Shown piece by piece: positions 1 through 27,036 of a stretch of 36,299 bases of DNA. The stretch is from Alphaproteobacteria bacterium. GTDB lineage: Bacteria > Pseudomonadota > Alphaproteobacteria > Rs-D84. Made by a program: the position numbers and the translations under genes. Numbering within the stretch: the stretch's first letter is position 1; each line of letters starts with the position of its first letter. Location: positions 1 to 36,299 of the forward strand of contig JAFYXQ010000010.1 in NCBI GenBank assembly GCA_017546085.1, given 5' to 3'. The notes under the pieces are model-generated. The model saw only the letters and a list, made by a program, of their open reading frames with translations. It did not search any database and had not been told where the DNA came from.

Positions 1-56
1 GCGTTTTAATATTGGTATGTGGTGTGTTGGTTTGTGTCATGCAACAATTTGTTGCA

Positions 57-158
57 CTGGTTCGACAATGAGTAAACGAGAACAAACAAAGTGCAGTTCG
101 AGTGCTAACGAATGCCCCACAGGCATTTTTATGCCGAGGGAATCAGCTGCCCCAACCA
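57..158 (+). repeat. tRNA 3'-end fragment (Gln-like) with a 74-nt structured insert in the T-loop
   Basis: CTGG-TTCGA-[66..139]-GAATC-AGCTGCCCCA-A-CCA. The insert shares CAATGA, CAAACnnAGTnCAG and GAATGCCCCRCAGGCAT-loop-ATGCCGAGG with the reverse complement of 26794-26866. No D arm or anticodon arm is recognisable. The Gln-like assignment rests only on the acceptor 3' strand. Confidence 0.75.
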
Positions 159-166
159 AGATTGAT

Positions 167-192
167 AAACCCGCCGATAAAGGCGGGTTTTT
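167..192 (+). terminator. intrinsic terminator after the tRNA-like fragment
   Basis: AAACCCGCC-GATAAA-GGCGGGTTT followed by T-rich sequence. Confidence 0.8.
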
Positions 193-217
193 GTTTTGTT
201 TTCTAGTATTTTCACTG

Positions 218-253
218 AGTTCGAAAGTGGTGAAAAATCACCACTTTCGAACT
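218..253. repeat. perfect 16-bp inverted repeat
   Basis: AGTTCGAAAGTGGTGA-AAAA-TCACCACTTTCGAACT, followed by a T-run on the + strand. Confidence 0.8.
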
Positions 254-267
254 TTTTTGTAATATAA

Positions 268-26460: not shown

Positions 26461-26494
26461 AAAATAATCGCCCAATTTCGGGCGATTTTATTTT
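26461..26494 (-). terminator. intrinsic terminator of the small Cys/His ORF
   Basis: AATCGCCC-N5-GGGCGATT flanked by A/T runs, directly after the stop at 26493. Confidence 0.75.
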
Positions 26495-26600
26495 ACTTAT
26501 CAGACATTTTTTTATCACAGTTTGCTTTTTTGTCGCAGCCATAATCGTGTGCTTTTTCACAGTTTTTACATTTGCCATGTTTGTTTTCAGATTTTGACAT
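26493..26600 (-). CDS. 35-aa Cys/His/Lys-rich small protein (metallothionein-like), absent from the ORF track
   Basis: RBS AAAGGA, ATG 26600, MSKSENKHGKCKNCEKAHDYGCDKKANCDKKMSDK*, terminator immediately downstream. Confidence 0.7.
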   Translation of the reverse strand: MSKSENKHGKCKNCEKAHDYGCDKKANCDKKMSDK

Positions 26601-26773
26601 TTTTGTTTCCTTTGTTTAATTGTTAATAAAATGTTGTCCGGACATATAAATGATACTATGGGTCAGAACAGCTTAACAATACGTGTGTTTTCCCAATTTT
26701 ATGTGTACGAAATACGAACTGACGTACCCACTGATAAAAATAAAAACGGGAATAAATCCCGTTTTAATTTTTA

Positions 26774-26875
26774 TGGTCGGGGTGACAAGATTCCCTCGGC
26801 ATGGTTTATGCCTGCGGGGCATTCCTGACGATTTTGCTGTACTACGTTTGCAAAATCTAGTCATTGTCGAACTTG
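26774..26875 (-). repeat. tRNA-Pro 3'-end copy with a 73-nt structured insert in the T-loop
   Basis: Sense strand CAAG-TTCGA-[insert]-GAATCTTGTCACCCCGACCA, compared with intact tRNA CAAGTTCGAATCTTGTCACCCCGACCA. Confidence 0.85.
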
Positions 26876-26919
26876 GTACACATTTTATGTGTACGAAATA
26901 CGAACTGACGTACCCACTG

Positions 26920-26959
26920 ATAAAAACAAAAACGGGAATAAATCCCGTTTTAATTTTTA
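26920..26959 (-). terminator. intrinsic terminator after tRNA-Pro (duplicated at 26734-26773)
   Basis: Minus strand AAAACGGGA-TTTAT-TCCCGTTTT with extended A/T arms. Confidence 0.75.
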
Positions 26960-27036
26960 TGGTCGGGGTGACAAGATTCGAACTTGCGACCCCTTGCACC
27001 CCATGCAAGTACTCTACCAGGCTGAGCTACACCCCG
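26960..27036 (-). tRNA. tRNA-Pro(GGG)
   Basis: CGGGGTG/CACCCCG acceptor stem, CTTGC-AT-GGG-GT-GCAAG anticodon arm, TTCGAAT T-loop, A73, CCA. Confidence 0.97.

Follow-up and report, generated by a model that had tools for sequence, protein, structure and literature searches.

The analyzed stretch of DNA (the window, 36,299 nt) corresponds to one entire contig of an alphaproteobacterial genome (0.82 Mb in 62 contigs, 94.6% complete). On its minus strand, an intact tRNA-Pro(ggg) gene is followed by a terminator and by a displaced second copy of the tRNA 3' end, whose T-loop is split by a small structured module, termed here el-1. The features of this locus are as follows:

26960–27036, minus strand: intact tRNA-Pro, anticodon GGG (ARAGORN; Rfam tRNA, 59.6 bits).
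26929–26951, minus strand: T1, a bidirectional intrinsic terminator-like hairpin 3' of tRNA-Pro (terminator prediction).
26895–26919, minus strand: L, a decayed reverse-complement copy of the tRNA 3' portion, comprising T-arm and acceptor 3' strand (sequence reading and local alignment).
26876–26894, minus strand: perfect 8-bp palindrome with a 3-nt loop, GTACACAT-AAA-ATGTGTAC (sequence reading).
26867–26875, minus strand: S, the T-stem 5' strand plus the first five T-loop bases, CAAG TTCGA (CAAGTTCGA; sequence reading).
26792–26866, minus strand: el-1 module, 75 nt (covariance model R1, 90.9 bits, E = 1.3e-18; covariation; homology borders).
26774–26791, minus strand: R, the displaced tRNA-Pro 3' end from A59 to CCA (sequence reading and repeat search).
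26743–26765, minus strand: T2, the second copy of the terminator (terminator prediction).
26696–26793, unstranded: 98-nt direct repeat, copy A (99% identical to 26882–26979).
26882–26979, unstranded: 98-nt direct repeat, copy B, the partner of 26696–26793, extending into the intact tRNA.

The two copies of the direct repeat, at a spacing of 186, span the tRNA tail R, the terminator and ~45 nt further, including L and the first arm of the palindrome at 26876–26894; the second arm of this palindrome is new. The tRNA-Pro(ggg) unit is, in other words, an 88-nt novelty between long repeats of local sequence. Within el-1 (26792–26866), the order is CAATGAC, the P1 hairpin (26830–26857) with its 2-bp inner helix, the joiner GTCAGGAATGCCCCGCAG, the P2 hairpin (26798–26812) and GAGGGA, and the repeated GA lets the module borders slide by up to 2 nt. 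A preliminary description of this DNA had reported the split T-loop in a second tRNA-Pro 3' end, with its coordinates, a 73-nt insert length (between CAAGTTCGA and GAATCTTGTCACCCCGACCA, the latter ending at 26774) and GA repeated on both sides, and all of these were reproduced. The inverted copy L at 26895–26919 reaches a score of 26, out of a maximum of 56, in its best local alignment with the restored tail in reverse complement; L is easier to recognize at other loci than in the window.

A second unit lies at the start of the window and hence at a contig end, because the window is the whole contig:

40–56, plus strand: palindrome before copy 1, TGCAACAA-T-TTGTTGCA (sequence reading).
57–65, plus strand: S of copy 1, CTGG TTCGA (sequence reading).
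66–141, plus strand: el-1 copy 1, 76 nt, with P1 of the tandem-G.A type (covariance model R1, 77 bits, E = 2.5e-15).
142–158, plus strand: diverged tRNA-Gln-like 3' end to CCA, followed by a terminator-like hairpin at ~170–192 (sequence reading).

The insert within 57–158 had already been described as homologous to the tRNA-Pro one, which is confirmed by alignment (76% mean column identity with a third copy) and by its covariance model score. In its last ~10 nt, the copy 1 tail resembles the 3' end of tRNA-Gln(ttg), and the tail is 1 nt shorter than a true one. Both units are indeed preceded by perfect 8-bp palindromes and followed by CCA and a terminator (a terminator-like hairpin after copy 1), as first described. 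The accompanying proposal that each unit pairs its own two T-stem strands stands in part, since in copy 1 this pairing is limited to 3 contiguous pairs.

A search for further copies yielded five in the host genome by motif, and the covariance model R1, built from 25 el-1 copies, finds exactly the same five. Copies 1 and 2 are those of the window, one copy follows tRNA-Arg(acg) on contig C60, one copy on contig C58 is nested inside a different module, and one, in reverse orientation beside tRNA-Pro(tgg), spans the overlapping ends of contigs C60 and C5; contig ends hold 2 of the 5 copies. Within one genome, the copies are only 60–75% alike. A strict sequence pattern matched 16 of 61 genomes (15 of 36 from the same genus and none of 24 from five other families), while a backwards control pattern matched none of the same 61, so that el-1 is more than a chance match. 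Within the genus, the covariance model has matches in 74 of 81 genomes (58 of 61 high-quality ones), with 1–21 matches per genome and 471 in total, the remaining seven genomes being devoid of el-1. An order-wide draw detected el-1 in 93 of 97 genomes of the genus and in 6 of 14 from other genera of the family; outside the family, there was one weak match among 4 genomes of a second family and none among 25 genomes of four further families. A one-genome-per-species scan recovered at least 119 el-1 loci, with Candidatus Enterousia and MAGs of uncultured Alphaproteobacteria from gut or rumen among the matches listed, and a metagenome scan added 45 loci. The same architecture is present in independent assemblies, including a closed 0.96-Mb chromosome, which rejects an assembly artefact; on this chromosome, all four matches begin 70–75 nt past a tRNA, two of them being truncated or decayed.

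Comparison with described sequences returned no relative of el-1. At the gathering threshold, only tRNAs of the window pass in Rfam 15; with E up to 10, both window copies produce only terminator-like sub-threshold matches, and Rfam gave no match for Unit A (a sister module described below) or for other el-1 copies. BLAST against plasmid and phage collections found no el-1, and among IMG/VR viral contigs the full pattern had no match, the three half-pattern matches being chance occurrences in coding sequence. At the level of search results, no description of such an element was found in the literature. Thus, el-1 is a discrete family, almost confined to one bacterial family. The expectations that it belongs to no named family, that it has a conserved structure linked to tRNA 3' ends and that it behaves as a discrete non-coding insertion were all borne out.

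The consensus of el-1 consists of CAATGAG-TA, P1, a conserved joiner (GTCAGGAATGCCCCRCAG), P2 and CGAGGGA. P1 comprises 8 bp plus an inner 2 bp and a 12-nt loop; P2 differs from P1 in sequence and form and was read as a hairpin of variable length in all copies inspected, left unaligned by MAFFT and lying outside the covariance model. Pair counts over 119 copies aligned to the model, of which 96 are distinct, give 93.7% paired cells vs. 75.8 ± 0.6% in shuffles, and 213 cells carry double changes vs. 47 in shuffles, with 0 of 500 shuffles reaching either observed value. An alignment fitted to the model leans to structure, and both the slid controls (30–55% paired) and a MAFFT-based RNAalifold result agree with these counts. 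The compensatory stem change first noticed between the two window copies turned out to be real and general, as all 8 P1 pairs and the 2 loop-internal pairs change doubly among the 96 distinct copies. G.U/U.G pairs outnumber A.C/C.A pairs by 11 vs. 2, and tandem G.A/A.G replaces two adjacent P1 pairs in 22–24 of the 96 distinct copies. Since purine-purine mismatches would be pyrimidine-pyrimidine on the opposite strand, the fold belongs to the element strand. These data show that only the element strand folds, as RNA or as single-stranded DNA; the fold z-score of the whole unit is -4.4 on the element strand vs. -2.6 on the opposite one. A coding role for el-1 was rejected because reading frames differ among copies as P1 length varies. 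Cores of the hammerhead-like or other small-ribozyme type were not found by eye on either strand, and a relation to tmRNA was dismissed, as the two-piece alpha-type tmRNA encoded by the host genome lies away from the el-1 copies and is unrelated.

The genomic context was assessed for 124 unique el-1 copies from 146 loci. As many as 103 of them are located within 1500 nt downstream of a tRNA gene (median 88 nt from the tRNA end), 89 on the tRNA strand and 14 reversed, all 14 at tRNA-Pro(tgg); a further 12 are at locus edges, and in the remaining 9 the preceding feature is a displaced tail, not an intact tRNA. Likewise, 40 complete copies on metagenome contigs include 28 on the tRNA strand, 3 on the opposite strand, 7 at contig edges and 2 after a tail fragment. 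Altogether, 18 tRNA types are used, foremost Gln-ttg, Pro-tgg, Ser-tga, Pro-ggg, Pro-cgg and Arg-acg.

The usual site lies between G57 and A59 of the T-loop in a displaced, non-functional tRNA 3' end. The left border reads C-G-A in ~119 of the 124 copies. By context, it is GTTC+GA (T-loop) in 89 copies and GGTC+GA in 3; another 20 have GGGC+GA, which corresponds to the Pro(tgg) acceptor strand in reverse complement, and 12 have other contexts. The reversed copies at tRNA-Pro(tgg) occupy the site GGGGCGA^AAGG of the bottom strand (^ marks the insertion point). Filled and empty sites match base for base in the T-loop (TTCGA^ATC), in Unit A (GTAGCGA^AAGGGGCCC, the nested copy on C58 compared with uninterrupted copies after tRNA-Lys and tRNA-Met) and in the loop of the inverted copy L (GGACAAGA^ACC). 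The repeated GA leaves the exact position of the cut ambiguous within CG^A^A, and any target duplication is at most 2 bp. For 208 pairs of copies from different tRNA types with module identity of at least 85%, identity of the left flank is 0.49 vs. 0.44 in the background, and that of the right flank is 0.40 vs. 0.40 and 0.42 vs. 0.41; with flanks at background identity on both sides, homology stops at the module borders. A tRNA intron was rejected, as in silico removal of el-1 restores a complete tRNA in 0 of 120 copies. Decayed and truncated copies also exist.

The T-loop slot can also be occupied by other modules, unrelated to el-1, and all of these modules are embedded in a common cassette of 165–190 bp, composed of a terminator, a decayed inverted tRNA tail, a hairpin, S (T-stem 5' strand plus TTCGA), a module, a tail to CCA and a terminator. 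Such cassettes sit directly downstream of tRNA genes, often as tandem arrays with a period of ~165–190 nt. In the host genome, the acceptor strand recurs as an exact 10-nt match within 600 nt downstream of 9 of the 41 tRNA genes; one of these loci is a decayed whole tRNA-Ala, and the other eight all carry a structured T-loop insert, namely el-1, a long or short Unit A (which ends ...GCGAAAGGGGCCC-hairpin-GGGAAT..AC) or others. The fact that all displaced tails seen in the host carry a module speaks against simple insertion, and it suggests that module and tail duplication may be coupled. Among 30 species compared at the tRNA-Pro(ggg) locus, 5 have el-1, 7 have Unit A and 1 has a further module, while L alone is present in 2 and nothing in 15; L is recognizably orthologous among these loci. 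In one genome (L170) whose tRNA-Pro(ggg) is identical, both the el-1 subtype and the small hairpin differ from those of the window, which indicates turnover at one locus. The several module types that share the T-loop slot, the decayed inverted tail copy, tandem arrays and the 98-nt direct repeat are points that go beyond the preliminary description.

One of its suggestions, a CCA-ended tRNA mimic, did not hold. The complement of L to the acceptor 3' strand averages 5.80 vs. 5.58 of 7 in shuffled controls (71 of 92 T-loop-type loci), no better than shuffles, so the acceptor stem is not maintained; the module is reversed at tRNA-Pro(tgg), hence no CCA lies 3' of it there; and no sigma-70-like promoter is predicted in the window unit between T1 and T2, the nearest promoter-like site being upstream of the tRNA. 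At several different tRNAs, TC in the loop of L has recurrently changed to GA, which gives L and S a tandem-G.A helix that matches the G.A-type P1 and one helix of Unit A in form.

This helix between L and S is one of several reasons to consider a functional RNA, a reading in which el-1 and Unit A are small-RNA domains and the cassette is an RNA gene whose tRNA-like 3' end (T-arm, acceptor strand and CCA) is processed by the tRNA 3'-end enzymes, with the module emerging from the T-loop at the 58/59 position. The emergence of the helix in the inverted copy by recurrent change, the strong covariation with invariant unpaired motifs, the one-strand G.U and tandem G.A pairs, the persistence of the module at orthologous tRNA loci across species and in 74 of 81 streamlined ~0.9-Mb genomes, and the closure of every unit with CCA and an intrinsic terminator all speak for such a gene, and T-loop motifs are known to tolerate insertions at this position. 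These points are countered by the conservation of the reversed tRNA-Pro(tgg) modules, which score about 80–86 bits, like forward ones, by nesting in other modules and the truncated and decayed copies, by the unmaintained acceptor-stem complement and the terminators with no promoter-like site between them, and by the 7 of 81 genomes that do without el-1. Conservation at individual loci counts against it too: in 315 orthologous pairs, identity is 0.82 for the module (inflated by the search pattern), little above the 0.73 of L plus hairpin, and 0.55 for the terminator, which gives no clear proof of per-locus purifying selection on the module. We consider this reading a serious rival, though on balance unlikely. 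Compared with an integral RNA gene, an insertion module is the better fit to the sharp borders, the exact agreement of filled and empty sites, nesting, the reversed locus, truncation and turnover. The one-strand fold, whose unpaired motifs are invariant, is in keeping with recognition of a folded single strand.

A comparison of nearest relatives speaks against frequent movement. For 73 of 103 copies, the closest relative at a locus of another genome adjoins a tRNA of the same type, whereas shuffling of the labels would predict 9 (and never gave more than 19 in 200 trials). Thus, judging from these sequence relationships, most el-1 copies appear to be old residents, vertically inherited, with a minority transferred or replaced. 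A strain-level empty site was sought in metagenome contigs through the exact 36-nt flank, which was not found there. The 5' and 3' halves of el-1 occur together in 128 of 133 cases, and cargo between the halves was never seen; an autonomous version, sought as modules split by cargo, was likewise not found.

Mobilization in trans, proposed in the preliminary description, gained no support from a search for a partner: genes for integrases, HUH/Y1 transposases, reverse transcriptases, TnpB or IS110 were not found to co-occur with el-1. The host genome encodes two Xer-like tyrosine recombinases (plus one sub-threshold match) and one stand-alone small serine recombinase amid housekeeping genes, and it contains no Y1 transposase (PF01797) or reverse transcriptase (RVT_1). 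Among the 81 genomes of the genus, Y1_Tnp (PF01797) is found in one, whose IS200 ends score at most 5.3 bits with the el-1 model; this lone IS200 is unrelated to el-1. The TnpB zinc-ribbon domain (PF07282) is over cut-off in 0 of 81 genomes, and the IS110 DEDD transposase (PF01548) is found in 0 of 81. Phage_integrase is present in all 81 genomes (1–8 each) and Resolvase in 71, and el-1 copy number is uncorrelated with either (Spearman rho 0.05 for integrases, 0.10 for resolvases); the ten genomes without a resolvase match carry 0–12 copies. Small serine recombinases, found in the same 71 of 81 genomes, were rejected as candidates, being neither adjacent to nor correlated with el-1 copies. There is no recurrent neighbor protein at different tRNAs, the top clusters being generic (ABC ATPase, autotransporter domain, glycosyltransferase). 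Xer/dif mimicry was also rejected, as the dif-like site of the host (located with an E. coli dif motif) is unlike a T-arm.

Tandem accretion at tRNA genes is typical of integrase-driven elements. Integrase-bearing islands use the same tRNAs as el-1, with an att identity of 16–19 nt, and the arrays lie just distal to these islands. At the attR of a 4.4-kb tRNA-Met island, the sequence runs from the tRNA-Met anticodon loop to the T-loop, with a Unit-A-like module in the T-loop and then the tail, ~350 nt from a gene for a 476-aa P4-like integrase. Together with direct repeats that begin at the tRNA tail, this would be in line with cassettes being relics or miniature derivatives of integrase elements (CIME-like), where the tail is an att core, the module and inverted copy are a former attP arm, and movement or amplification is due to island integrases acting in trans. 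The other three attR junctions do not conform to it: all lack L and the hairpin, two are without a module, and the third (tRNA-Gln) has a 5-nt stub of the module start. No integrase lies beside el-1 arrays, and viral contigs yielded no relatives of the island integrase. Furthermore, the host has five el-1 copies with its two Xer-like recombinases only; genomes with at most two recombinases average 5.0 copies vs. 6.3 in the rest; covariation and strand-specific non-Watson-Crick pairs are unexpected of duplex arm sites; and the repeats often take in the locus's own terminator, with inter-locus homology restricted to the module. An origin from integrase elements is, in our assessment, quite unlikely.

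The arrangement of tail copies in the order direct, inverted, direct, with junctions at hairpins and a new palindrome arm exactly at the repeat border, brings up yet another reading, in which the unit has no function and merely results from the dynamics of palindromes. The tail copies would arise when synthesis folds back or switches template at the hairpins of the terminator and the T-arm, and intramolecular correction, not selection, would keep the stems complementary. An insertion with long target duplication is a described class of rearrangement, known for kilobase restriction-modification gene units (PMC2853133). The window unit is similar in its 88-nt insert, 98-nt local direct repeats and the lack of a mobile gene, and it differs in that the insert is tiny and non-coding, many tRNAs are used and the module is always the same. 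A by-product of this kind leaves unexplained the 75-nt sequence with its invariant unpaired motifs, its ~470 copies and 18 tRNA types; it does not account for the sharp module borders, and self-correction would erase the conserved tandem G.A mismatches. We therefore regard it as highly improbable.

A side-by-side comparison with known systems helps to place el-1 more closely. PATEs of the IS200/IS605 type and REP/RAYT elements are small and non-coding, with hairpins near both ends and no terminal inverted repeats; they insert 3' of a short motif without target duplication, fold on one strand and prefer the lagging-strand template. Similarly, el-1 is small and non-coding, has hairpins near both of its asymmetric ends, folds on one strand, inserts right 3' of a fixed short motif without target duplication and, judging from tRNA orientation, may prefer the lagging-strand template of co-directional genes. 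Unlike these elements, it is found with no Y1/HUH transposase in the host and with one in 1 of 81 genomes of the genus; its two hairpins are dissimilar, host copies are only 60–75% alike, and its targets are the loops of hairpins that derive from tRNAs. The closest working analogy is the peel-and-paste mode of insertion known from IS200/IS605-type elements, from which el-1 departs in transposase and hairpin similarity. Integrase att sites and CIMEs share with el-1 units the duplicated tRNA 3' end that restores the gene and, as a direct repeat, flanks the unit, the arrays at tRNA genes and the absence of genes within; they are set apart by the ~180-bp size of el-1 units, the structured module that interrupts the T-loop of the displaced copy, the presence of an inverted tail and the lack of a link to integrase number, neither a cognate integrase in cis nor a dependence in trans having been found.

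Bacterial tRNA introns are of group I, and archaeal bulge-helix-bulge introns can occur in the T-loop; el-1 is reminiscent of them in its precise break at T-loop positions 57–59 and, by nesting, of twintrons, and is unlike them in that a whole tRNA is never interrupted (0 of 120), a group I core would not fit into 75 nt, Rfam gives no intron match, and the module is also found reversed. In tmRNA, Y-RNA-like RNAs and viral TLS, a T-arm-like hairpin with a CCA 3' end adjoins a structured domain, as in the cassette, whose acceptor stem is, in contrast, not maintained. The el-1 ends, CAATGAG and GAGGGA, are not inverted repeats, unlike those of a MITE, and the repeat is at most GA. The omega-RNAs of TnpB/IscB and the bridge or seek RNAs of IS110/IS1111 depart from el-1 in that their cognate proteins (PF07282 over cut-off, PF01548) are found in 0 of 81 genomes. 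Lastly, integron attC sites go with an IntI integrase and GTTRRRY core sites; an integron-type motif is not visible at el-1 borders, and the host has two Xer-like recombinases only.

Overall, el-1 is a previously undescribed variant among the small structured repeats and insertion elements, and it is restricted to a single lineage of gut Alphaproteobacteria. The explanation that we prefer, to which we give about an even chance of being correct, is a miniature non-autonomous insertion element, now mostly vertically inherited, that targets loops of folded single strands. Such an element would enter the CG^A^A step of loops that form where sequence of tRNA origin folds, with the reaction presumably acting on a folded single strand, either tRNA sense-strand DNA (the lagging-strand template) or RNA. 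The enzyme would be supplied in trans and may be extinct, unassembled or of an unrecognized family. Once established, cassettes could multiply to tandem arrays by unequal recombination between repeated tails and terminators. A bolder interpretation, which we view as rather unlikely, is that el-1 and its sisters form a new class of loop-targeting insertion elements without a dedicated transposase of a known family, using either an unrecognized host or helper protein that reads the tandem-G.A helix by the CGAA loop, or nucleic-acid-catalyzed self-insertion and excision on folded single-stranded DNA or RNA; equally, they could constitute a novel family of functional RNA domains that are embedded in T-loops and peculiar to gut Alphaproteobacteria with reduced genomes.

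If el-1 is mobile, its sequence- and structure-specific insertion at the apex of the T-arm hairpin, in genomes without any of the transposase families tested, would point to an unrecognized mobilization route, catalyzed by a protein or by a nucleic acid. As an RNA, el-1 would represent a widespread structured RNA family, accompanied by several sister modules, in a poorly known gut lineage. At a practical level, el-1 repeats break assemblies at tRNA loci and provide a clean marker for the genus. In the biology of these streamlined genomes, the ends of tRNA genes emerge as places that gather arrays of decoy tails.

Repeats of el-1, the structured non-coding module of ~75 nt that splits the T-loop of displaced tRNA tails (second, non-functional copies of tRNA 3′ ends), break up short-read assemblies at tRNA loci. 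Contig breaks fall within or beside its cassettes (window 1-60 and, in genome G000, the ends of contigs C60 and C5); the window itself starts inside the terminator immediately upstream of el-1 copy 1, and the 43-nt overlap of C60 and C5 is located inside el-1 copy 5, the reversed copy by tRNA-Pro(tgg).

Two further features lie close to the cassettes of the window.

Window 26493-26600, minus strand: 35-aa Lys/Cys-rich ORF with four Cys, adjoining the cassette
Window 170-256: pair of strong successive hairpins past el-1 copy 1

The ORF is preceded by a Shine-Dalgarno-like AAGGAAA and has its own bidirectional terminator (26466-26487); it could be a genuine small protein. The hairpins gave a sub-threshold match to the Rfam TD-2 RNA (36.8 bits, with a gathering threshold of 48.7; E 3e-4) and are probably merely tandem terminators.

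The same T-loop slot in displaced tRNA tails is also occupied by Unit A, a structured module unrelated to el-1.

L002:~240-360 (G000 C60) and L003 (C58): Unit A
C24, C41, C56 and C32: Unit A after tRNA-Lys(ctt), tRNA-Met, tRNA-Glu(ctc) and tRNA-Arg(cct), respectively

Unit A comes in two sizes, long (~110 nt) and short (~55 nt), with tandem G.A pairs within a helix and a terminal part of the form ...GCGAAAGGGGCCC-hairpin-GGGAAT..AC; it has no match in Rfam, and its 3′ domain and that of el-1 are alike.

In another genome of the genus, G066, islands are found at tRNA genes.

L165:590-5100 (G066 C16): 4.4-kb island in tRNA-Met
L166 (G066 C16:130-134 kb): tRNA-Gln island

On the former are genes for a P4-like integrase (476 aa, with an HTH at its N-terminus) and an AAA-type ATPase (450 aa), along with an ORF of 160 aa. 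The attR of this island runs from the tRNA (anticodon loop to T-loop) through a Unit-A-like module to the tail. The tRNA-Gln island combines a gene for a serine recombinase of 199 aa with genes for a DNA methyltransferase and a putative restriction enzyme; its junction, TTCGACAATG...AATCC, looks like what the near-complete deletion of an el-1 would leave.

Of the 81 reduced genomes of the genus, 71 encode resolvase-type small serine recombinases (~200-230 aa), with at most seven copies each, and a single IS200-type element was found in the genus.

G000 C13:592-1197: lone small serine recombinase amid housekeeping genes
L162:1400-1450 and 1900-1960 (G028 C6): IS200-type element

Both end hairpins of the latter are nearly identical (CCCCGGGGCTTGCCCCGAGGG) and have the 8-mer CCGAGGGA in common with the 3′ end of el-1, probably by coincidence.

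Finally, a nuclease-family ORF is found near a tRNA gene.

G000 C44:6797-7260: small GIY-YIG nuclease-family ORF, ~95 aa (Pfam match, 59 bits)

It starts ~100 nt past tRNA-Gln(ttg), and related short stubs occur in other species past the CCA of tRNA-Pro (L181, L193, L196), which suggests a further type of cassette landing exactly at tRNA 3′ ends.
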